Below are positions 10,313 through 20,661 of a DNA stretch of 40,279 nt, in pieces. The DNA is from Polyangiaceae bacterium. GTDB lineage: Bacteria; Myxococcota_A; Polyangia; Polyangiales; Polyangiaceae. The position numbers and the translations under genes were made by a program. The notes below the pieces were generated by a model. The model was not told the DNA's origin. It did not search any database and saw nothing but the letters and a program-made list of their open reading frames with translations. The first letter of the stretch is position 1. Each line of letters begins with the position of its first letter. The stretch is taken from contig JBGAID010000021.1 in NCBI GenBank assembly GCA_044225865.1, positions 1-40,279 on the forward strand. The letters run 5' to 3'.

Positions 10313-11251
10313 ATGAGCTCGACCGAAGCCGAAGCGCCGTTTCATGCCGGAGAGATCGCCGTCCAAGAGCGGGCCGGGGCGCGGGAGATCGCCGCCCAAG
10401 TCGGACGCATCATTCGCGACGCGATGCCCGACCAACATCGACTGTTCTTCGCCGAGCTCCCGTATGTCGTGCTCGGCGCGCTCGACGACGCGGGTTACCC
10501 GCGCGCATCGTTCGTCGCGAAGGCGCCCGGCTTCGTCTCCACGCCGGATCCGAGGACGCTCGTCGTGGGGGCGCTGCCCGTCCCGGGCGACCCGGCCCTC
10601 CCTGGGCTCGGAGCGGGGAGCCCGGTCGCGGTGCTCGGGATTCAGCTCCACACCCGGCGCCGCAACCGCGAAAACGGCCTTGTCCTCGACCGATCCGAAG
10701 AGACCCTCACGATCGGCATCGAGCAGAGCTTCGGCAACTGCCCCAAGTACATCGTGCCGCGGAGCGTGATCGGCCCGCGAACGCGGGAGAGGGGCGCCGT
10801 CACCGCCCTGGGGTCGGGCCTCTCCGACGAGGCCGAGCGGATCATTCGCGCCGCTGACACCGCCTTCATCGCGAGCGCGCGGCCCCGCTCGGAGGGGGGC
10901 TCGCTCGACGTCTCTCACCGTGGCGGGGAGCCGGGGTTCGTCCACGTCGAGCGGACGGACCGGGGCACGAGGCTCGTCATGCCCGACTACTCCGGGAACT
11001 ACCTCTTCATGACCCTCGGCAATCTCTACGAGAACCCGCGCGCCGGACTGCTCCTCCTCGACTTCGAGCGGGGCGACGCGCTCTCGATCGCGGCCGAGGC
11101 ACGGATCCTCTGGAACGACGCGCGCGAGGCCGAGACCTGGGGCGCGGAGCGGCGGATCGAGCTCGACGTGGTCGGTGGCATCCTCCTGCCCGGGGCGGTG
11201 CCCTTCACCTGGACCACCCCAACGCCTTCCCGAAGTCGCCCCCGCTCATGA
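10313..11251 (+). CDS. Pyridoxamine-5'-phosphate-oxidase-like (split-barrel, FMN-binding) family protein.
   Basis: N-terminal FHAGEIAVQERAG motif typical of the PNPOx-like family. Divergent from a LysR gene. Confidence 0.5.
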   Translation: MSSTEAEAPFHAGEIAVQERAGAREIAAQVGRIIRDAMPDQHRLFFAELPYVVLGALDDAGYPRASFVAKAPGFVSTPDPRTLVVGALPVPGDPALPGLGAGSPVAVLGIQLHTRRRNRENGLVLDRSEETLTIGIEQSFGNCPKYIVPRSVIGPRTRERGAVTALGSGLSDEAERIIRAADTAFIASARPRSEGGSLDVSHRGGEPGFVHVERTDRGTRLVMPDYSGNYLFMTLGNLYENPRAGLLLLDFERGDALSIAAEARILWNDAREAETWGAERRIELDVVGGILLPGAVPFTWTTPTPSRSRPRS

Positions 11252-11279
11252 GATGGATCGATAGGATTCAGATCTACGC

Positions 11280-12233
11280 ATGAGCAATGTCGAGCTACGT
11301 CGCTCCAATCTGAATCTGCTCCCGGTCCTCGAGGCGCTGCTCGAGACGCGCTCCGTCACGGAGTCGGCGCGTCGACTCCATGTCTCTCAGTCGGCGGTCA
11401 GCCACTCGCTCGCGCGCCTCCGTGAGATGCTCGGCGATTCCTTGCTCATGCCCTCGGGGCGGAGCTTCGTGCTGACCCCGCGCGCGGTGGAGCTGGCCGC
11501 CTCGCTCCCGTTGGCGCTCGACGGGCTGGAGCGGGCCCTGGCTCCGAGCACGCCATTCGAGCCCGCGTCGACGCAGCGGACATTCCGGATCGCCACCCTC
11601 GACTACTTCGAGCTGGTCCTGATCGGCGAGCTGCTCGCGACGATGCGCTTGCGGGCGCCTCGCGCGAAGGTCGTCGTCGACCGCATCTCCCCGGGCACCA
11701 TTCCCGCCCTGCTCGCGGGGGACATCGACCTCGCCCTCGTCGGCGAGACCAGCCTCCCCCGGCACCCCTTGCTCGAGCGGCGGCCCCTCTACGAGGAGCC
11801 GTTCGCGGTGATGATGCGAAGGGGCCACCCCGCCGCGAAGCGAGGCCGCGTTTCCCTCCACGACTATCTGGCCTATCCCCACGTCGTCGTGACGGTCGAA
11901 GGCAGGCTCGACGGGGCCGTCGACCGGGCGCTCGAGCGACACAAAGTGCGCCGTGAGGTGGCCCTCCGCGTGCCTCACTTCGCGACCGCTCCCCTCGCCG
12001 TTGCCGCCAGCGACGCCATTTGCACCATCGCGAGTCGAGTCGCCCATCGAGCGCAGGAGCTCTATCCGGTCGTCGTCAGGAAGCCGCCCATCGCCCTGCC
12101 GAGCCCGACGATCTGCGCCGTGTGGTCGAGGCGGGCCGCTGAAGACCCAGCCGCGAGCTGGTTTCGCGGCCTGTTCCTGGATCCTTCGGGGCCTCTGCGC
12201 GTCCCCGACGTCCCGCGAGCGCGGCGGCGGTGA
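11280..12233 (+). CDS. LysR family transcriptional regulator.
   Basis: LNLLPVLEALLETRSVTESARRLHVSQSAVSHSLARLRE HTH. Confidence 0.85.
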   Translation: MSNVELRRSNLNLLPVLEALLETRSVTESARRLHVSQSAVSHSLARLREMLGDSLLMPSGRSFVLTPRAVELAASLPLALDGLERALAPSTPFEPASTQRTFRIATLDYFELVLIGELLATMRLRAPRAKVVVDRISPGTIPALLAGDIDLALVGETSLPRHPLLERRPLYEEPFAVMMRRGHPAAKRGRVSLHDYLAYPHVVVTVEGRLDGAVDRALERHKVRREVALRVPHFATAPLAVAASDAICTIASRVAHRAQELYPVVVRKPPIALPSPTICAVWSRRAAEDPAASWFRGLFLDPSGPLRVPDVPRARRR

Positions 12234-12256
12234 GTTGACGGCGTCGGCGCGGCGTG

Positions 12257-12288
12257 CAATATGGTTAACCGACTCGTTAACCATATTG
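12257..12288. promoter_or_regulatory. Perfect AT-rich palindrome CAATATGGTTAAC-cgactc-GTTAACCATATTG upstream of the VOC-ArsR-SRPBCC operon. Candidate ArsR operator.
   Basis: 13-bp perfect arms with a 6-bp spacer. Conspicuously AT-rich for this genome. Lies in the 89-nt gap before the VOC gene. Confidence 0.5.
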
Positions 12289-12322
12289 GGCGCGCGAGCG
12301 CAGCGCCCCAGAGGAGCCCACC

Positions 12323-12784
12323 ATGAAGCCGACTCCCCCCGGATGGCCGCGGCTGTCCCAGTCCGTCTATTACCGCGACCCCGCCAAGGGGATCGATTGG
12401 CTCTGTCACGCCTTCGGGTTCGAGGTGCGCCTCAAGGTCGAGCACGACGGCGCCGGGATCGTCCACTCCGAGCTGACCTTTGGCGAAGGGCTCGTCATGG
12501 TGGGCGGCACCGGGCGAACGGACGCCGGGAAGGCCGCATGGCAGGCCCTCCAGAAGAGCCCTTTGGATCTGGAGGGCGCGAACACCCAATCGATCTGTAT
12601 CTTCGTCGACGACGTCGACGCTCACTGCGAGCGCGCCCGCGCCGCCGGCGCCACGATCCTTCGAGAGCCCGAGACGACCGACTACGGAGACGACTATTGG
12701 ACCGACCGCTCGTATGGCTGCCTCGATCCGGAAGGCCACCTTTGGTGGTTCATGCAGCGGCTCCGCAACGGCCCCCCGCGATGA
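12323..12784 (+). CDS. VOC (glyoxalase/bleomycin-resistance/PhnB-like) family protein.
   Basis: VYYRDPAKGIDWLCHAFGFEV ... LDPEGHLWWFMQ fold pattern. Confidence 0.7.
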   Translation: MKPTPPGWPRLSQSVYYRDPAKGIDWLCHAFGFEVRLKVEHDGAGIVHSELTFGEGLVMVGGTGRTDAGKAAWQALQKSPLDLEGANTQSICIFVDDVDAHCERARAAGATILREPETTDYGDDYWTDRSYGCLDPEGHLWWFMQRLRNGPPR

Positions 12785-13164
12785 GCCCTCGGCGTAGCCC
12801 GCTCGACCTGGGCGCCATCTTCTCCGCCCTCGCCGACACCACGCGACGAGACGCGGTCGCCCTGCTCGGCAAGGGTCCGCGCCGGGCGAGCGATCTCGCC
12901 GAGCACCTCGGGGCGAGCCGTCCGGGGATGAGCCGTCACCTGCGCGTCCTCCGCGAGGCTCGGATTGTCCGGGAGGAGGCGGACGGCAGCGACGGGCGCG
13001 CTCACGTGCTCGTCCTCGATCCGGCGGCGTTCGCCTGCGTGCGAAGCTACCTGGACGAGGTCGAGGGCTTCTGGCCGGATCAGCTCGAAGCGTTCAAAGA
13101 AGCGGCCGAGGCTCGGGCCCGTGAGGTCGCGGCCGCGCCGAAGCGAAAGAAGAAGGCCTCTTGA
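12781..13164 (+). CDS. ArsR/SmtB family transcriptional regulator. The ATG overlaps the VOC stop (ATGA).
   Basis: DTTRRDAVALLGKGPRRASDLAEHLGASRPGMSRHLRVLREARIV. Confidence 0.8.
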   Translation: MSPRRSPLDLGAIFSALADTTRRDAVALLGKGPRRASDLAEHLGASRPGMSRHLRVLREARIVREEADGSDGRAHVLVLDPAAFACVRSYLDEVEGFWPDQLEAFKEAAEARAREVAAAPKRKKKAS

Positions 13165-13177
13165 GCGGAGGAGGAAG

Positions 13178-13699
13178 GTGACCGTGCACGATCGGGCAAA
13201 GGTGACGATCCGCGTGGCCGCACCCCGTGAGATCGCGTTCGAGGTGTTCACCGCGGAGATCGACGGTTGGTGGCGGCACGGGCGGAAATACCGCTGCGCC
13301 GAGCCGAGCACGATGGCGCTGGAGCCTCGCGCGGGGGGGCGATTGACAGAGACCTTCGAGGCCGGCGGCAAGGTCACCCGCCGCACCATCGGCGAGGTGC
13401 TCGATTGGTCGCCTCCGAAGCGGCTCATTTTCACCTGGCGCGCCGCGAACTTCGAAGAAGCGGATCCCTCCACCGTGGTGGAGGTTACGTTCGAGCGCGC
13501 CATTGGTCACTCCGGCGAGGGCACCCTCGTCACCCTCGAGCATCGAGACTGGAGCCGGGTTCGCCCCGATCACCCCGCTCGCCACGGACAAGCGCCCGAT
13601 GCCTTCCTCTCCGCCACCGGCCGTTGGTGGGGAGACCTCCTCACCGCTCTCCGCGAGAGACTGGCGATGAGGTCTACTGGCGCAGCTCCCGGCGAATGA
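13178..13699 (+). CDS. SRPBCC (AHSA1/Aha1-like) family protein. GTG start after a GGAGGAGGAAGG ribosome-binding site.
   Basis: GWWRHG..., LIFTWR, GTLVTLEH motifs. Typical partner of ArsR regulators. Confidence 0.7.
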   Translation: MTVHDRAKVTIRVAAPREIAFEVFTAEIDGWWRHGRKYRCAEPSTMALEPRAGGRLTETFEAGGKVTRRTIGEVLDWSPPKRLIFTWRAANFEEADPSTVVEVTFERAIGHSGEGTLVTLEHRDWSRVRPDHPARHGQAPDAFLSATGRWWGDLLTALRERLAMRSTGAAPGE

Positions 13700-14084
13700 C
13701 GAGGCGAAGCCCCGACCAGACCTCGTCGATCGCGCACACCTTGTTGTCTACGAGCCCGGTCGGGAGCGCCACCTCCCGCACCACGTCCTCCGTGACGTCC
13801 GTCTCGACCTTGGAGGCTCGCTTCGGCCAAGCGATCCAGAGGCTCCCCGTTTGCGCCATCTTCGGCCGCAGGGTCGCGATCTTTCGCTCGAGATCGGCCC
13901 GCCGAGTCAGGAACACGACGATGACGTCGATGGGGCCCTTTTCGCGAGCGGACGCCCATCGAACCTCGTCCGGCCCGAGCCCCAGGCCCTGGGCGAAACC
14001 CTCTGGGCCGTTCACGACCGAGAGCAGTTGTCCCTCTCTGATGCCGAGCTTCTTGACGAGAGGCGTGGTCGAATAACCTGCCAT
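13674..14084 (-). CDS. DUF3052 family protein.
   Basis: MAGYSTTPLVKKLGIREG ... LWIAWPKRASKVETDVTEDVVREVALPTGLVDNKVCAIDEVWSGLRL matches the remembered DUF3052 pattern. Confidence 0.55.
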   Translation of the reverse strand: MAGYSTTPLVKKLGIREGQLLSVVNGPEGFAQGLGLGPDEVRWASAREKGPIDVIVVFLTRRADLERKIATLRPKMAQTGSLWIAWPKRASKVETDVTEDVVREVALPTGLVDNKVCAIDEVWSGLRLVIRRELRQ

Positions 14085-14095
14085 GTGCGCCCCTC

Positions 14096-14881
14096 TCAAC
14101 GGCCGGTGAAGGTCGCCTCGCGCCTCTCGACGAAGCTCGCGAGGCCCTCGCTCGCGTCTTGGCTTCCGAGGATGGGCGGCAGCGCAGATCGCAAATGATC
14201 GACCGCTGCGGCCGGGCCGTGGCTGCGCGCGATGCGCGCGTTCGCGAGGGTCGCTTGCACCCCGAGCGGGGCCTGCTTCGCGACGATGGTGGCGATCTCG
14301 CGGGCCCGCTCGACGTGGCGGCCCTTCTCCACCACCTCCTGGACGAGCCCGATCCGGAGCGCCTCGCGCGCGCCAAACTCCTCACCCGTGAGCAGGAAGC
14401 GCATCGCGTTCCCCCAACCGAGCTGGGCGGGCGCGCGGAACGTCGCGCCCCCGAATGGCATGATCCCGCGCCCGATCTCCAATTGGCGAAAGCGGACGTC
14501 TTCGGCCGCGATCACGATATCGGAGGCGAGGGCGAGCTCGATCGAGAGGGTGAAGGCAATCCCGGCCACGGCCATGACCACCGGCTTCGGCACGAGGGGC
14601 CCCCAAACCCCGAAGGGATCATAGACACGCCCTCCCGCGAGCGTCTCGGGGCCCGACGACGCGACGCGAGGCCCGACGACGGCGAGATCCAGCCCGGCGC
14701 TGAAGTGGTCGCCGTGGCCGAACAGCACGCCGCAACGAAGCTCCGGGTCGGTGCCGAGGGTCTCGTAGGCGGCCGCGAGCGCCTCGATCGTCTCCAAATC
14801 GAAGGCATTGCGCTTCTCGGGCCGATTGACCCCGATCAGGAGCACGTGCCCCTCTCTCTCGACCGTGATTCGCACTGTCAT
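14096..14881 (-). CDS. Enoyl-CoA hydratase/isomerase (crotonase) family protein.
   Basis: LIGVNRPEKRNAFDLETIEALAAAYE ... GHGDHFSAGLDL ... crotonase fold motifs. Confidence 0.85.
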   Translation of the reverse strand: MTVRITVEREGHVLLIGVNRPEKRNAFDLETIEALAAAYETLGTDPELRCGVLFGHGDHFSAGLDLAVVGPRVASSGPETLAGGRVYDPFGVWGPLVPKPVVMAVAGIAFTLSIELALASDIVIAAEDVRFRQLEIGRGIMPFGGATFRAPAQLGWGNAMRFLLTGEEFGAREALRIGLVQEVVEKGRHVERAREIATIVAKQAPLGVQATLANARIARSHGPAAAVDHLRSALPPILGSQDASEGLASFVERREATFTGR

Positions 14882-14929
14882 GTTCGCGTCGTCCGCTACG
14901 GACGAGCGGGCGTCAATGCGGCTTCTCCT

Positions 14930-16795
14930 TCACAGAGGGGGGGATTCGCCCCCCCGAAGGCGCCTCGCGACCGCCCAGTGCTCCTCCCCGCCCCTCCGCG
15001 GCGCGGGCAGGGCGGAGAGGAAAGCGCCAATCGCCTCCGCGACCGCGTCGGCGTGGGTCAAATGCGGATTGTGGCCCGCCCCCGGGATGGTCACGACGTT
15101 CTTCACGGCGGGCGGGCACCGGATGGGCTCCGCCTCGGCGTGGATCACCAGGATTGGGATCCGTCGCTCGACCACGCGGCTGAGCGCGCCTCGCAAGGCC
15201 ACGCGCGCCTTGGGAGACGCGGCCCGCGCGAGGGCGCGGGCGATCCGGAGGGGAGCCCCTCGGCGGCGCATCGCCGAGAGGGCGGCGTCGATCGCACGCC
15301 CCGCCTCATCGAGCGCAGGCCCGCTCGCCTCGGATAGGAATCGCCGAACGAACGCCGGCCGATCGATCCGGGCGAGCACGGGGGCGACGATCCGCGGCAT
15401 TCGCAGCAGCCAGGGGGCGGGACCAGCGAGGAACGCCGGCGCTATCAAAATCAGAGCGCGAACCTCGTCCGGGCGGGCATCCGCGTGGGCGACCGCGAGG
15501 CCCGCCCCGAGCGAGTGCCCGACGAGCACCGCCGGCTCGCGGCGGCGCCGCAACACCTTCGAGAGCCAGTCGGTGTCTTCGTCGCTCGCGTGGACCGCGG
15601 ACGACCTACCCATGCCCGGCAAATCGATGCTCGCCGTCGCCGCCCCCAGCCGCGACGCAACGGGAGCCATCGCCTCGCCGTCGAACGGGACGCCGTGCAG
15701 GGCGACGAGCTCGGAGGTCTCGAGCGGCCCCGCGACGAAGATGCCGCCGTGCGTCCTACCGCGCACCGCCCCTGGCACCCGCCCGAAGTAGGTCGACGCG
15801 AGCCCGTCGCACGCCCGCGGGAAGGCCTCTTCGAAGCGGGAGAGCTCAATCCCCTCCGAAGCGGCGAGCGCCTCGGTGCGGCGGGTGTCGTAGCGGTCTT
15901 CGACGAGAAAGCCGAGGCTCTCCGCGTCGACGCCGGTGAGCACCTTCGGCAGCGCGGCGACGAGCCCGACGGGGAGACGCCGAGAGGGAAGCCCGACTTG
16001 CCAATGCGCCGCCGCCGCGCCGAGGAGCTCCGGGAGGGTGGGCGTGCCCGGGTCGAGCACTACCAAATCCTCGCCCGCGCTCTCCTGTCGAAAGGGGACC
16101 GTCGCGAGGATCTCGGCGAGCGTGTCGACCGGGACGATCGGCACGGTCTCGCGGCCCGTCCCGACCTGAGCCAGGAGTCGCCCCTCGAAGAGCCGCCCCA
16201 GCGTCTCGCCGAGCCCTATCGTCTGAATCGTCTCTCCTGTCCGCGAGTCCCCTATCACCGCGCTCGGGTGCACCGCCGTCCACGGCATCGACCGGCCCGA
16301 CATCTCGTCGCGAAACAGCCGATAGGCGGCGTGCTTCGATCGCTCGTACGCGCCGTCTCCGCCTCTCGCGGGCCGGGTCATCCGATAGCCACCCACGAAC
16401 ACGAAGCGCTCCAGGCGGGGGAGCTCCGCCGCCCACGCGATCACGTTCCGCGTCCCCTCTACGTTGGCGGCTCCGGCCTCGCGCCGATCCATCCCGAAGG
16501 CGAACTTCGCGGCGAGGTGAATGACCACCCGCACCGCCCTCGGGTCGAGGGCGAGCCCCAACCCCGGCCTCTCGATATCCCCGTCCACGACCAGGACGCG
16601 CTCCGGGTCGCCCCCGATCCGGGCCACGAAGGCGCGGAGCTCGGCCTCGCGCCGCGCCCCCCCGCGGACCAGCGCGACGACGGTGTGGTGGCGACGGGAG
16701 AGGGCGGCGAGCGTCCATCGACCGATGAAGCCGGTGGCGCCCGTCACGAGCACGGCGGCGGCGGAGAGGTCGGCAGTGCGTTTCATGCCGACCAT
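14930..16795 (-). CDS. Fusion protein: N-terminal thioester/fatty-acyl reductase (NAD_binding_4, TD-like SDR) plus C-terminal alpha/beta hydrolase.
   Basis: VLVTGATGFIGRW, YERSKHAAYRL (YxxxK), and a TD-like region. C-terminal VLVGHSLGAGLAVAHA GxSxG elbow. Confidence 0.7.
   Translation of the reverse strand: MVGMKRTADLSAAAVLVTGATGFIGRWTLAALSRRHHTVVALVRGGARREAELRAFVARIGGDPERVLVVDGDIERPGLGLALDPRAVRVVIHLAAKFAFGMDRREAGAANVEGTRNVIAWAAELPRLERFVFVGGYRMTRPARGGDGAYERSKHAAYRLFRDEMSGRSMPWTAVHPSAVIGDSRTGETIQTIGLGETLGRLFEGRLLAQVGTGRETVPIVPVDTLAEILATVPFRQESAGEDLVVLDPGTPTLPELLGAAAAHWQVGLPSRRLPVGLVAALPKVLTGVDAESLGFLVEDRYDTRRTEALAASEGIELSRFEEAFPRACDGLASTYFGRVPGAVRGRTHGGIFVAGPLETSELVALHGVPFDGEAMAPVASRLGAATASIDLPGMGRSSAVHASDEDTDWLSKVLRRRREPAVLVGHSLGAGLAVAHADARPDEVRALILIAPAFLAGPAPWLLRMPRIVAPVLARIDRPAFVRRFLSEASGPALDEAGRAIDAALSAMRRRGAPLRIARALARAASPKARVALRGALSRVVERRIPILVIHAEAEPIRCPPAVKNVVTIPGAGHNPHLTHADAVAEAIGAFLSALPAPRRGGEEHWAVARRLRGGESPPL
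14937..14955 (-). terminator. GGGGGGG-ATTCG-CCCCCCC hairpin immediately after the stop of the reductase-hydrolase gene. Related to the hairpin repeats at the window start.
   Basis: Read directly. 7-bp G/C stem with a 5-nt loop, sitting between two co-directional genes. Confidence 0.45.
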
Positions 16796-16833
16796 CCTGC
16801 GACCGGCCCATCATGAGCGAAATTGAATCGTTT

Positions 16834-17634
16834 TCATGGCTCGCATGACTCATCTCGCACATTGCTGGCCCGGATCGCGGCGACGAGCCAGGCCGTGAGC
16901 CCCGCTCCATGGCGATCGATGTTCTCCCGAAAGCGCGCGTCCGCCTCGTACATGTCGGCGAGGCCGCGGTGCATCTGCCGGGAGCACGGATAGAACCAGC
17001 GATCGATCGACAGCCGATGCCGCTCGGCGAGCTTCGTCCCTTCGGCGCCAGCGGGAGGCGTGCCGTCGAGCATGAGCGCCGCCGCGTCCGCCATGATCGC
17101 GTCCGCCTCCATCCTGTAGCGCTCCCAATCCGCCTTCGTGTACCGGCTCGTTCGGCGCTTGGACTCCTCGTACGCCTCGGTCTCGCCCCAGCGCGACTTG
17201 GCCTCCGCCTCGTAGCGAGATGGCTCGAATCCGTCGAACAGCGCCTTCACTTCCTCGTCGCTCATTCCGATGGTCATGCTCGTCTCTCCTTCTTTCTGCA
17301 GCGCGAGGAGCGCCGCCTCGACCGACCGCAACATCGCCGCCGTCCGCTCCGCGCGCGCCAAGAGCTCGCGCCGCTGCCCCTCCAACGCGCCCCGCCTGTC
17401 GTAGCTCGGGTCATCCAAGGATCGTTTGATCGCTTCGAGCGGCATCCCGAGCTCACGCCCCACGAGGATTTGCTGGAGGAGGAGGAGGTCCTCTTCGCGA
17501 TAAAGCCGATAGCCGCTCTTCGAGCGGGCCGAAGGTACGAGCAGCCCCACCTCGTGATAGTGGTGCAGCGTCCGAATGGAGACGCGGGCGAGCTCGGCGA
17601 CCTCGTTGACCCGGAGCATTTTGCGACTCGTCAT
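16834..17634 (-). CDS. MerR family transcriptional regulator with a TipAS-like C-terminal domain. An alternative start at 17619 is possible.
   Basis: MLRVNEVAELARVSIRTLHHYHEVGLLVPSARSKSGYRLYREEDL. Confidence 0.8.
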   Translation of the reverse strand: MTSRKMLRVNEVAELARVSIRTLHHYHEVGLLVPSARSKSGYRLYREEDLLLLQQILVGRELGMPLEAIKRSLDDPSYDRRGALEGQRRELLARAERTAAMLRSVEAALLALQKEGETSMTIGMSDEEVKALFDGFEPSRYEAEAKSRWGETEAYEESKRRTSRYTKADWERYRMEADAIMADAAALMLDGTPPAGAEGTKLAERHRLSIDRWFYPCSRQMHRGLADMYEADARFRENIDRHGAGLTAWLVAAIRASNVRDESCEP

Positions 17635-17666
17635 GTCGGGGACGCTACGGCCTCCCGTCGCGTGAG

Positions 17667-17724
17667 GGTCAAGGACATTTGCTGCCCCACGCGCCTTGAC
17701 CATCAATGCGCCATGATGTATCTA
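17667..17724 (+). promoter_or_regulatory. Divergent MerR/ArsR promoter region: dyad GGTCAAGG-n19-CCTTGACC, then CATCA-n8-TGATG lying between a TTGACC and a TATCTA spaced 17 nt apart.
   Basis: Read directly. The -10-like hexamer ends 1 nt before the annotated ArsR ATG, so the transcript may be leaderless or the true start may be GTG 17732. Confidence 0.35.
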
Positions 17725-17725
17725 C

Positions 17726-18067
17726 ATGCGCGTGCAACTAGACCCGTTCCAAGTCTTGGCCGACCCGACCCGCCGGCTCATCGTCGAGACGCTGGGGGCC
17801 GGGGAGGCCCAAGTGAATCAGCTCGTCGATCGATTGCCGATTCACCAGTCGGGCGTCTCGCGCCACCTCCGAATCCTGCACGAAGCAGGCTTCGTTCGGA
17901 TGCGCGCCGATGGGCAGAGGCGCCTCTACTCCCTCCGTCCGGAGCCCCTCAAAGAGATCGAAGAATGGGTCTCTCGCTATCGCAGCCTCTGGGAGGGGCG
18001 CCTCGACCGCCTCGACAGCGCCCTCGAGCGCCGCCGCAAATCCAAGTCCAAAGGGAGTCATTCGTGA
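17726..18067 (+). CDS. ArsR/SmtB family transcriptional regulator.
   Basis: FQVLADPTRRLIVETLGAGEAQVNQLVDRLPIHQSGVSRHLRILHEAGFV. Confidence 0.8.
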   Translation: MRVQLDPFQVLADPTRRLIVETLGAGEAQVNQLVDRLPIHQSGVSRHLRILHEAGFVRMRADGQRRLYSLRPEPLKEIEEWVSRYRSLWEGRLDRLDSALERRRKSKSKGSHS

Positions 18068-18561
18068 AGAAAGAGCACATCACGATGGAGCGCTCGCTCT
18101 CCGCGACGCTCGACGAAGTGTGGGAATTGTGGACCACGAAGGACGGGATCGAGTCGTGGTGGGGGCCCCACGGCTTCCGGGTCGAGGTCCGCGTCCTCGA
18201 CGTGCGGCCGGGCGGGACGATGCTCTATGACATGATCGCGGACACCCCCGAGACGCGGACGTACATGAAAGAGGCGGGGATGCCGGGCCGGCACGAGGCC
18301 CGAATCACCTTTCGCGAGGTCCGCCCGCGGGAGCGCCTCGCCTACACGCACCTGGCCGACTTCATCCCCGGGGTCGCCGCCTACGACGTCGAGACGGTCG
18401 TCACCTTCGCTTCCGTCGGGCCCAAGGTGCGCTTGGTCCTCGAGTTCGACCGGATGCACGACGAGCCGTGGACGAGGAGAGCCACCGAAGGCTGGACGAT
18501 GGAGCTCGCCAAGCTGGAAGCAAGACTGAGTGTGATGATTCACGAGAGGAAAGACGCATGA
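18064..18561 (+). CDS. SRPBCC (AHSA1-like) family protein. The GTG start overlaps the ArsR stop (GTGA).
   Basis: WELWTTKDGIESWWGP ... paralogue of the 13178-13699 product. Confidence 0.65.
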   Translation: MKKEHITMERSLSATLDEVWELWTTKDGIESWWGPHGFRVEVRVLDVRPGGTMLYDMIADTPETRTYMKEAGMPGRHEARITFREVRPRERLAYTHLADFIPGVAAYDVETVVTFASVGPKVRLVLEFDRMHDEPWTRRATEGWTMELAKLEARLSVMIHERKDA

Positions 18562-19022
18562 CGACCAAGGCATCCCCCTTCTTGATGTTCAATGACCAGC
18601 TCGAGCGCGCGATCGAGCTTTACACCTCCATTTTCCCCGACACGCGGCTGCTCTCTGCCTCCCGAAACGGCGAGGGCGGGCCGATGACGGCGGCGGAGCT
18701 CGTGATCGGGGGGCAACGATTCATGGCCTACAATGGAGGTCCCCACTTCAAATTCTCGGACGCGTTCTCGATCTTCGTCAGCTGTGAGGACCAAGCCGAG
18801 GTCGATCGATATTGGGACGCGCTCGTGAAGGCGGGCGCCAAGCCGGTTCAGTGCGGATGGATCACGGATCCGTTCGGGCTCTCTTTTCAGATCGTGCCCA
18901 AGCGCTTCATGGAGCTCGTCGCCGACCCGAGCCCGGCCAAATCGCGCGCCGTCGTCGCCGCGATGATGAAGATGGTGAAGCTGGACATCGCCGCCCTCGA
19001 GCGGGCCCACGCCGAGGCCTGA
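18558..19022 (+). CDS. PhnB-like VOC-superfamily protein (3-demethylubiquinone-9 3-methyltransferase-like, PF06983-type). The ATG overlaps the upstream stop.
   Basis: KASPFLMFNDQLERAIELYTSIF ... FMAYNGGPHFKFSDAFSIFVSCEDQAEVDRYW ... QCGWITDPFGLSFQIVP. Confidence 0.75.
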   Translation: MTTKASPFLMFNDQLERAIELYTSIFPDTRLLSASRNGEGGPMTAAELVIGGQRFMAYNGGPHFKFSDAFSIFVSCEDQAEVDRYWDALVKAGAKPVQCGWITDPFGLSFQIVPKRFMELVADPSPAKSRAVVAAMMKMVKLDIAALERAHAEA

Positions 19023-19864
19023 TGCTCGCCCCCGAGAACACCGCCGCTCGCGTGGCCCTGTGGCGCGCCCTCCACGTCCAAACCGACGCGCCACCCCACG
19101 TGCTGGAGGACGAGGTCGGGCTGAAGCTCGTCGCTCCCGAGCCCGACTGGCAGAAGCGCCCCGACATGAGCCCTTTCACCAGGCCGTTCCGGGCGTCCAT
19201 CGTCGCGCGCGCCCGCTACGTCGAGGACGTGGTGGAAGCGAAGGTCGCGCAGGGCTTCGACCAATACGTGATCCTCGGGGCGGGGCTCGACACATTCGCC
19301 CAGCGTCGCCCGGAGCTCGCCTCGCGCATCGTCGTCTTCGAAGTGGACCAGCCCGGACCGCAGCGGTGGAAAGCGCAGAGACTGATGGAGCTGGGCTTCG
19401 GCGTGTCGTCCTTTCTCAGGCTCGTACCGGTGGACTTCGAACAGGGCGACGACTGGATGGGGCGCCTCTTGGAGGCGGGGCTCTCTCGCGAACGGCCCGC
19501 GATCGTAGCGTCGACCGGCGTCAGCATGTACCTGACCCGGGCCGCGATCGAGGCCACCCTCCGCGAGGTCGCGGCCCTCGCCCGCGGTACGACGCTCGTA
19601 ATGTCATTCATGCTCCCGATCGAGCTCGCCGAGGCCGCTGTTCGGCCCGGCATCGAGGCGGCCGCCCGGGGCGCCCGCGCGAACGGAACGCCATTCGTGA
19701 GCTTCTTCACCCCCGCGGAGATGCTCGCCATTGCGCGCGAAGCCGGCTTTGCGAGGGTCGAGCACGTATCCGCGGCCGCCCTCACGGAGCGCTACTTTTC
19801 GGGCCGCTCCGATGGGCTGCGTCCGCCCCTCGACTCAGAGGAGCTCCTCGTCGCAGAAGCCTGA
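19022..19864 (+). CDS. Class I SAM-dependent methyltransferase, LCM/TIGR00027-like family. Its start overlaps the upstream stop by 1 nt.
   Basis: VILGAGLDTFAQRR motif and overall LCM-family layout. Confidence 0.65.
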   Translation: MLAPENTAARVALWRALHVQTDAPPHVLEDEVGLKLVAPEPDWQKRPDMSPFTRPFRASIVARARYVEDVVEAKVAQGFDQYVILGAGLDTFAQRRPELASRIVVFEVDQPGPQRWKAQRLMELGFGVSSFLRLVPVDFEQGDDWMGRLLEAGLSRERPAIVASTGVSMYLTRAAIEATLREVAALARGTTLVMSFMLPIELAEAAVRPGIEAAARGARANGTPFVSFFTPAEMLAIAREAGFARVEHVSAAALTERYFSGRSDGLRPPLDSEELLVAEA

Positions 19865-20058
19865 GGGCGGACAAATCTGAGGAGCGGAGCGACGAGGCCG
19901 TGTGGATCGGGCGCGAGATCGCGCGAGTGCGCCGGCTTTCAAACATGATCGGTGCTCTGGTAGCAGGGTCTCGGGCGCTGATTTATTCTCGAGCCGCGGG
20001 AGGCGATGTCTTGGAAGAAACGGTCTACGAGCTCACGCCGCGAGGCGTGCGGAGATTC

Positions 20059-20661
20059 ATGGTGTTCCTCGTGATCGCGGCCGTCGGTGGGGTCGCCCTC
20101 ATCGGGCTCACCGTCGCGGGAGACGTGCTCGCGGGCTATGGTTGGGCGACGAAGGACGGGGCGCCGCTCGATCTCACCCACGCCCTCGACGCGGCGCCGC
20201 GCGTCACCAAGGCGGAGGAGGACCTCGCGATCGATGTCCCGGAGGGTCGCGGGGCTTTGGTGGTGCTTGTCGGAAAAAACCTGATTGGCCACGACACCAC
20301 CACCGCGAGCTGCTCGGCCCGGGACGGGGCCGGTCGCCCCATCACGATGCTGTCCCAGCCTTCGATTGCGACCCAGGTGACGACGGGTGAAGGCCACCTC
20401 GTAGGCAACGACGAGCAGATCGTGGTCGACGCGGGGGTGAGGCCGGGGCCGCTCCGCAAGGTCATCTTCCGCTGCTCGATGCTCGACTCCGGGATCCGCT
20501 CCATCTCCGCCGTGACCACGGAGGACGTCCGCTTCCCCGAGGAGAAGCCTTGGCTGCGTCCGGCCAAGCTCGCCGGGTGGGGCTCGTTGGGGATTGGTAT
20601 CCTGGGCATGTTCGTGGCCGTCCTCACCGGGCGCCGACGCGTCATCGCGCCTTCAGCCTGA
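20059..20661 (+). CDS. Hypothetical membrane protein with TM helices at both termini and a ~150-aa periplasmic core. ATG 19945 is an alternative start but has poor codon bias.
   Basis: Hydrophobic N- and C-terminal segments. GC3-rich codons begin only after 20059. Confidence 0.4.
   Translation: MVFLVIAAVGGVALIGLTVAGDVLAGYGWATKDGAPLDLTHALDAAPRVTKAEEDLAIDVPEGRGALVVLVGKNLIGHDTTTASCSARDGAGRPITMLSQPSIATQVTTGEGHLVGNDEQIVVDAGVRPGPLRKVIFRCSMLDSGIRSISAVTTEDVRFPEEKPWLRPAKLAGWGSLGIGILGMFVAVLTGRRRVIAPSA

Follow-up and report, generated by a model that had tools for sequence, protein, structure and literature searches.

Two neighbouring ArsR–SRPBCC–VOC cassettes in a Polyangiaceae contig and their candidate operators

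We analyzed a 40,279-nucleotide (nt) stretch of DNA, hereafter the window, that covers positions 1 to 40,279 of contig JBGAID010000021.1 from the Polyangiaceae bacterium assembly GCA_044225865.1 and has a G+C content of about 69%. The window contains two gene clusters, which we refer to as cassettes A and B, and both have an HTH_5-type ArsR gene with an AHSA1-family (PF08327) SRPBCC gene behind it in the same orientation. This arrangement corresponds to the ArsR-COG3832 (Aha1/AHSA1, START-superfamily) pair described by Makarova, Wolf and Koonin in 2009 as a multi-copy module without metal motifs (PMC2701414). In the reading that we favor, with moderate confidence, the cassettes are two independent ArsR-COG3832 operons from two old subfamilies and not the products of a local duplication, and each would be autorepressed and handle small molecules. 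This reading builds on direct observations of gene content, synteny, operator conservation, the absence of metal sites and a conserved gene overlap.

The gene map was based on a list of open reading frames (ORFs), direct reading of the sequence and Pfam. Both clusters lie on the + strand with about 4 kb between them, and the two ArsR–SRPBCC pairs fall within 7.6 kb. The Pfam matches bear out the domains that an earlier note on this DNA had assigned to both clusters, and each forms a compact operon of an ArsR-like repressor, an SRPBCC ligand-binding protein and a VOC-fold partner, as that note had described. The components are as follows.

Cassette A
12254–12288, + strand: candidate promoter–operator, with a palindrome at 12257–12288, a −35-like GTGCAA at 12254–12259 and a −10-like TAACCA at 12278–12283
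12323–12784, + strand: VOC_A, 153 residues, glyoxalase/bleomycin-resistance fold (PF00903, E 2.6e-15)
12781–13164, + strand: ArsR_A, 127 residues, ArsR/SmtB-fold winged-helix repressor (HTH_5, E 1.1e-11)
13184–13699, + strand: SRPBCC_A, 171 residues, AHSA1-family helix-grip protein (PF08327)

Cassette B
17696–17737, + strand: candidate promoter–operator, with a −35 TTGACC at 17696–17701 followed by four ATGCA-like cores (17706–17736)
17732–18067, + strand (ORF from ATG 17726): ArsR_B, 111 residues from GTG 17732 (HTH_5, E 6.6e-12)
18064–18561, + strand: SRPBCC_B, 165 residues, AHSA1-family helix-grip protein (PF08327, E 3.9e-14)
18558–19022, + strand: PhnB-like VOC-fold protein, 154 residues (PF06983, E 8e-35)
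19022–19864, + strand: LCM/TIGR00027-type S-adenosylmethionine-dependent methyltransferase, 280 residues (PF04072, E 7.8e-48)

Orthologous loci and the relationship between the cassettes

To place the cassettes among their relatives, we compared the B-type loci of the best 80 of 492 species genomes with SRPBCC_B relatives, and 80 A-type loci drawn from at least 549 metagenomic stretches with SRPBCC_A relatives. An ArsR_B orthologue stands directly upstream of the SRPBCC_B gene in 79 of the 80 species, and the B-type loci come from Myxococcota, Acidobacteriota, Chloroflexota, Dormibacterota, Actinomycetes and Verrucomicrobiota. In about 35 of the 80 loci the pair is accompanied by a PhnB-like gene, either 3′ of the SRPBCC gene or between the two genes. 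Since neither the LCM methyltransferase nor the MerR/TipAS regulator that borders cassette B occurs in any of these 80 loci, the former is a lineage-specific addition and the latter a lineage-specific neighbor. On the A side, VOC_A is the first gene of a conserved trio: the order VOC–ArsR–SRPBCC is kept in nearly all of the approximately 70 loci with enough upstream DNA (loci L120 and L157 being the exceptions), and ArsR–AHSA1 adjacency in about 68 of 80, most of the exceptions being contigs that end upstream.

The earlier note had regarded both the ArsR and the SRPBCC proteins of the two cassettes as recognisably paralogous, and the cassettes as modules that had duplicated and then diverged. 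For the SRPBCC proteins this does not hold. Neither BLASTP (E ≤ 100) nor phmmer (E ≤ 1) could align SRPBCC_A with SRPBCC_B, and profiles built from 30 orthologues each gave an hhalign probability of 0.4%, so that pairwise and profile comparison finds nothing beyond the shared Pfam family; the check that the note itself had suggested, when run, shows the pair to be no more similar than random AHSA1 members. The two ArsR proteins are 34% identical over 99 residues, including the C-terminal helix region, with a phmmer score of 47 bits. A search with ArsR_A of 1.84 billion cluster representatives (50%-identity clusters) returned 250 at E ≤ 1e-10, all of them above the 47 bits of ArsR_B, and 5367 at E ≤ 1e-3, so that at least 250 representatives are nearer to ArsR_A than ArsR_B is. 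The two ArsR proteins are thus neither mutual closest relatives nor more alike than typical family members.

Comparison of the orthologue sets gives the same picture. Each ArsR scores 65–134 bits (ArsR_A) or 113–176 bits (ArsR_B) against its own orthologues. A-type ArsRs have a median of 85 bits to ArsR_A versus 51 to ArsR_B, while B-type ArsRs have a median of 134 bits to ArsR_B versus 42 to ArsR_A, and cross-matches between the A and B SRPBCC families number 0 of 80 in both directions. Because the ArsR cross-scores separate cleanly and the SRPBCC cross-matches are absent, the cassettes appear to represent two old, distinct operon families that lie near each other by chance. The alternative, in which a single ArsR–SRPBCC–VOC cassette was duplicated in this lineage and its copies diverged in operator and ligand specificity, would account for the short distance, the common strand, the residual ArsR identity and the match of both SRPBCC proteins to PF08327. 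It is difficult to reconcile with the undetectable SRPBCC likeness, with the many cluster representatives nearer to ArsR_A than ArsR_B is, and with the VOC partners, which are unrelated by BLASTP, belong to different Pfam families and occupy different operon positions. Furthermore, each cassette has far more similar syntenic orthologues elsewhere, for cassette B in other phyla, and any common origin involving cassette B would therefore predate those phyla. We consider such a duplication improbable.

Candidate operators, gene overlaps and neighboring genes

Upstream of VOC_A lies a perfect palindrome, CAATATGGTTAAC-n6-GTTAACCATATTG, with 13-nt arms (12257–12288), which the earlier note had put forward as a candidate operator. 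The orthologous loci strengthen this proposal, as 38 of 45 carry the promoter–operator-like element cTTGcA.ATgGTT-N10-gGTTAAC(c/t)ATT upstream of the VOC gene in a single ungapped register, into which the window palindrome falls exactly. A position weight matrix built from 37 orthologues, with the window excluded, scores 27.4 bits at 12255, compared with −2.1 bits for the next site in the 40 kb and a maximum of 18.8 bits over 200 shuffles. The half-sites of the palindrome lie next to the −35 and over the −10 position; we infer the assignment of the GTGCAA and TAACCA hexamers from the register of the orthologues. One further regulator gene precedes the cassette.

11280–12233: LysR gene, upstream of cassette A

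LysR was considered as the protein that binds the palindrome and was rejected, with no LysR matches in the orthologous A-type loci. ArsR_A is the likely binder, since no other regulator accompanies the motif.

The conserved element of cassette B has a different design. In the promoters of ArsR_B orthologues, TTGACA is followed by ATGCA cores at offsets 0, 10, 16 and 26, which constitute two overlapping ATATGCA-N6-TGCATAT repeats, and the fourth core serves as the start codon. About 55 of the 80 B-type loci reach an array score of at least 15/20, the random maximum being 14. In the window the cores are ATGCG (17706), ATGTA (17716), CTACA (17722) and GTGCA (17732), the last of which coincides with the start codon, and the array score of 15/20 at 17706 is the highest at any position on either strand. 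The register of the array and the N-terminal alignment (orthologues begin with MH/MQ-x-D-x-F and have 110–116 residues) place the probable start of ArsR_B at GTG 17732 and not at ATG 17726. A Shine–Dalgarno (SD)-like tetramer precedes only 1 of 79 B-type starts, versus 42 of 45 VOC_A-type starts. This scarcity points to SD-less or leaderless initiation inside the operator, and the cassette B mRNA would be SD-less and probably leaderless. In a set of Chloroflexota and Dormibacterota loci (L037, L045, L051, L066–L069, L078, L080, L081, L089 and L091) the gene order is ArsR–PhnB–SRPBCC; their promoters differ and carry a repeat resembling ATATATCG-N6-CGATATAT, in which the −35 box TTGACA forms the 6-nt spacer.

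A different cassette B operator, CATCA-n8-TGATG at 17701–17718, had been proposed in the earlier note, which took it to be shared with a divergent MerR/TipA-like gene. The repeat is present, but it is not the conserved element: arms of 5 nt carry little weight, a match with at most one mismatch turning up in 40 of 100 shuffles, and its position is shifted by 4 nt relative to the register of the orthologues’ conserved array. A 12-nt inverted repeat returned by a repeat finder, TGAGGGTCAAGG/CCTTGACCATCA, was also rejected as an operator, as it consists of two back-to-back −35 boxes, one TTGACC per strand. Rather than sharing an operator with cassette B, the divergent gene appears to have its own, on a back-to-back promoter.

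16834–17634, − strand: regulator with a MerR domain and a TipAS antibiotic-recognition domain (PF13411 and PF07739, E 2.9e-37), divergent from cassette B
17642–17672, − strand: putative promoter of the merR/tipA-like gene, with TTGACC at 17672–17667, a 19-nt spacer and TAGCGT at 17647–17642

Within the spacer lies the inverted repeat CCTCCCG-TCG-CGTGAGG (17651–17667), which is statistically weak on its own and which we take to resemble the tipA operator. The gene thus combines a MerR helix-turn-helix (HTH), a TipAS domain and a long-spacer promoter with an inverted repeat, the features of the TipA class. Its ATG lies 7 nt past the −10-like TAGCGT, just as the GTG of ArsR_B lies 7 nt past TATCTA, and both starts seem to be SD-less (17619–17634 and 17732), which suggests two back-to-back leaderless transcripts. 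An orthologue of this regulator (325 bits) is found in locus L139 (2179–4327), where it is divergent from an A-type VOC–ArsR–SRPBCC cassette, and the intergenic region there holds a similar repeat, CCTCACG-CCG-CGTCAGG, adjoining GGTCAAG. The regulator therefore stands beside an A-type cassette in L139 and beside a B-type cassette in the window, in two cases only.

According to the earlier note, all consecutive genes of both cassettes overlap by 1–4 nt. This is correct for four junctions, namely VOC_A/ArsR_A (ATGA), ArsR_B/SRPBCC_B (GTGA), SRPBCC_B/PhnB (ATGA) and PhnB/LCM (TGATG, 1 nt), but not for ArsR_A/SRPBCC_A, where the stop codon ends at 13164, the GTG start lies at 13184, and the 19-nt gap carries GGAGGAGG, a strong ribosome-binding site. 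Among the orthologous loci, a 4-nt overlap between the ArsR and SRPBCC genes occurs in 53 of 64 A-type and 51 of 67 B-type cases (about 80%), with start codons assigned heuristically as the nearest match to the aligned N-terminus. The tight ArsR–SRPBCC coupling that the note had read from the window is accordingly a deeply conserved trait of the module, though one that has been lost from the window’s own cassette A.

Identical proteins in the same arrangement occur on 12 short metagenome contigs, which indicates that the DNA comes from an uncultured organism, and the best relatives of the window proteins come from Myxococcota assemblies. Outside the two cassettes, a search of the 40-kb window revealed no further ArsR, SRPBCC, VOC or PhnB homologues of the seed proteins, and Rfam returned no family at gathering score for positions 1–40279. 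NCBIfam assigned none of the SRPBCC, VOC and PhnB proteins to a specific family. Between the cassettes, on the opposite strand, lie an enoyl-CoA hydratase gene (14096–14881) and a gene for a 621-residue protein that joins an NAD-binding reductase/epimerase-like domain to an alpha/beta-hydrolase domain (14930–16795, − strand), both assigned from precomputed Pfam matches. A further minus-strand gene at 13674–14099 has a weak match to DUF3052 (22.3 bits versus a cutoff of 22.7), and its 3′ end overlaps that of SRPBCC_A convergently by 26 nt (13674–13699), with identical gene calls on the metagenome contigs.

Functional interpretation

We examined the repressors for the residues by which classical ArsR/SmtB proteins bind metals. 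ArsR_A contains a single Cys and, from reading of its sequence, lacks a CxC motif in helix 3 and a His in helix 5. ArsR_B, like 69 of its 79 orthologues, contains no Cys at all, and as in ArsR_A both the α3 CxC and the α5 His/Asp/Glu metal site are missing. The two proteins therefore have the ArsR/SmtB fold without its metal ligands, in keeping with the metal-motif-free ArsRs of the ArsR-COG3832 module. Both pass the generic ArsR/SmtB model of NCBIfam (NF033788, their only assignment there), as would be expected if the cassettes were classical metal- or metalloid-sensing operons. Given the missing ligands, the lack of any transporter or reductase gene in either cassette (Pfam) and the insensitivity of the related Rv2034 to seven metals (PMC3338718), we regard this interpretation as close to negligible.

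In the mechanism that we favor, each metal-site-free ArsR most likely represses its operon by binding a palindromic operator situated over its own promoter. For cassette A the operator would be ATGGTTAAC-n6-GTTAACCAT, ahead of the VOC gene and across the −35 and −10 positions, and for cassette B the four ATGCA-like cores, which take in both the −10 region and the SD-less start codon. Repression would be lifted by a signal, probably organic and hydrophobic, upon which the co-translated SRPBCC pocket protein would act together with its VOC-fold partner on a toxic small molecule, by binding, sequestration or modification; the methyltransferase of cassette B may also contribute.

Among solved structures, VOC_A is closest to TioX (PDB: 3ITW; E 8.9e-17). 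The GTG start of SRPBCC_A is backed by the N-termini of its orthologues (MSDRA..), its family profile matches TxnO9 (E 1e-15) and CalC (PDB: 1ZXF; E 1.4e-11), and the motifs WWRHG and ERAIGHSGEG are conserved and particular to it. Its AlphaFold model (predicted local distance difference test score, pLDDT, of 87.8) adopts a helix-grip fold, with CalU16 among the structural neighbors. For SRPBCC_B, 1781 homologues were found; its GTG start is likewise backed by conserved orthologue N-termini, and its model (pLDDT 93) is a helix-grip fold whose nearest structures are AHSA1 proteins such as 1Z94 and 1XFS. The fold searches thus confirmed the helix-grip for both SRPBCC models and did not identify a function. 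The PhnB-like protein matches 1U69 (E 1.8e-27) and also PhnB 3OMS, and the methyltransferase scores 156.7 bits with TIGR00027. The small-molecule binding or sequestration role envisaged in the earlier note fits TioX, CalC and TxnO9 as nearest solved relatives. For cassette A, these relatives hint at the handling of toxic natural products, and suggest that its targets are natural products that attack DNA or compounds resembling aromatic polyketides.

Several points weigh against this reading. The pairing of each protein with its site, the inducer and the biochemical role are all matters that we infer. SRPBCC_A resembles CalC and TxnO9 at the family level only, and TxnO9 is an enzyme and not a binding protein (PMC13525633), so that sequestration is not the sole reading; the solved relatives of SRPBCC_B and of the PhnB-like protein are all uncharacterized. 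At the DNA level, the cassette B operator is degenerate in the window, its score of 15/20 being also reached by 6% of shuffled windows, the −10 hexamers cannot be confidently fixed, and a strict sigma-70 and terminator scan of 11200–20200 returned no promoters and nothing useful.

The conserved coupling could also reflect a two-protein sensor, in which the SRPBCC protein, ligand-loaded or ligand-free, binds an ArsR that lacks a sensor of its own and alters its affinity for DNA as part of a regulatory complex. The 4-nt overlap, kept in two unrelated subfamilies, favors equimolar synthesis, and neither ArsR has any known sensory site. In addition, the PYL abscisic acid receptors, which work in this manner, are among the structural neighbors of both SRPBCC models, and a generic regulatory role was also raised in the 2009 study (PMC2701414). 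A close relative of ArsR_A, P0278 (259 residues), fuses an HTH_5 domain (21–66) to an AHSA1 domain (128–255), and ArsR–AHSA1 fusions were noted earlier (PMC2577659), but P0278 could be a frameshift or gene-calling artefact at the 4-nt overlap. Moreover, a simple repressor-plus-cargo operon also predicts coupling, the A junction of the window is uncoupled, and a PhnB gene separates ArsR from SRPBCC in some clades. We therefore view the two-protein sensor as possible but unlikely. A specific form of the idea, to which we assign a slightly lower likelihood still, is a split ligand sensor in which an SRPBCC protein made 1:1 with ArsR binds a hydrophobic xenobiotic, contacts the ArsR and frees the promoter-covering operator. 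If true, bacteria would have an equivalent of the PYR/PYL receptor logic of plants, present in many copies per genome with varied pockets and operators, and in the B subfamily the operator would also cover the start codon of a leaderless mRNA.

A toxin–antitoxin-like module, with the SRPBCC protein as toxin and the ArsR as antitoxin and autorepressor, was considered as well. The two-gene, autoregulated, multi-copy and patchily distributed nature of the pair is compatible with it, and the pair was listed as a candidate toxin–antitoxin system in 2009, by authors who deemed antibiotic resistance more plausible (PMC2701414). The pair is chromosome-enriched (310 chromosomal versus 13 plasmid cases), often extended by VOC or PhnB genes, and shows no evident toxin-like catalytic motif; PADLOC and toxin–antitoxin family searches gave generic HTH matches only. 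We judge this possibility to be very improbable, and retain the autorepressed, small-molecule-handling operon as the preferred reading.

Comparison with known systems

In soil bacteria, ArsR–AHSA1 pairs rank among the most abundant of the two-gene modules that are still uncharacterized, a status that goes back at least to 2009. The window leaves this overall picture unchanged; it provides two more cases of a widespread known module. The additions are modest but ease its testing: two operator motifs, the conserved 4-nt overlap and, in the B subfamily, SD-less starts inside the operator. A further testable handle is the stable VOC–ArsR–SRPBCC trio, which has its nearest solved relatives in antibiotic gene clusters. 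With such handles, binding, induction and ligand screens should be easy to design.

Among individual systems, the divergent regulator next to cassette B resembles TipAL-type MerR regulators in its MerR HTH and TipAS domains and in having its own promoter, where a 7-3-7 inverted repeat lies within a 19-nt spacer. The gene lies outside the conserved cassette, and any regulatory link to cassette B is putative. VOC_A shares the PF00903 family with TioX, from the thiocoraline cluster, and with bleomycin- and mitomycin-binding resistance proteins. TioX is a drug binder; VOC_A differs in lacking a nonribosomal peptide synthetase context, and its own binding function is a prediction. CalC, which confers calicheamicin resistance by self-sacrifice, and the trioxacarcin heterocyclase TxnO9 are similar to SRPBCC_A in profile and predicted fold, the combination of a START/SRPBCC fold with a sequence relationship to CalC being found for SRPBCC_A only. 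CalC-type proteins have a conserved glycine at which hydrogen abstraction and cleavage take place, and are linked to an enediyne gene cluster. The genomic setting of SRPBCC_A differs, since the neighbors examined (regulators, enoyl-CoA hydratase and the reductase–hydrolase fusion) include no enediyne polyketide synthase or other polyketide cluster genes.

An experimentally studied counterpart is the M. tuberculosis operon Rv2034-Rv2035-Rv2036, an autorepressed, metal-insensitive ArsR–SRPBCC operon with overlapping coding sequences and a palindromic operator that extends from −30 to +3 (PMC3338718). In a comparison of architecture, it shares with cassette B an ArsR gene followed by an overlapping SRPBCC gene and the proposed position of the operator, which reaches the start codon. 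In contrast, its operator is CCGTAAGT-N4-ACTTACGG, versus the ATGCA cores or ATGGTTAAC-N6-GTTAACCAT described here, and ArsR_B has no Cys to correspond to Cys61, which is functionally important in Rv2034.

Both cassettes belong to the ArsR-COG3832 module, for which antibiotic resistance was considered the most plausible role, with toxin–antitoxin-like or regulatory functions as alternatives (PMC2701414). Frankia genomes carry the ArsR–AHSA1 group too (PMC4531530), and the linkage to ArsR is not mentioned in a 2026 review of bacterial START proteins (PMC13525633). Like the module, the cassettes are chromosomal, have an ArsR gene followed by an AHSA1 gene on the same strand, lack metal motifs and occur in more than one copy, with two pairs in the 40-kb window. 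They differ from it in the VOC gene that precedes the pair in cassette A and in the PhnB and methyltransferase genes that follow it in cassette B. To the picture of this module, our analysis adds putative subfamily-specific operator motifs and a conserved 4-nt overlap between its two genes.

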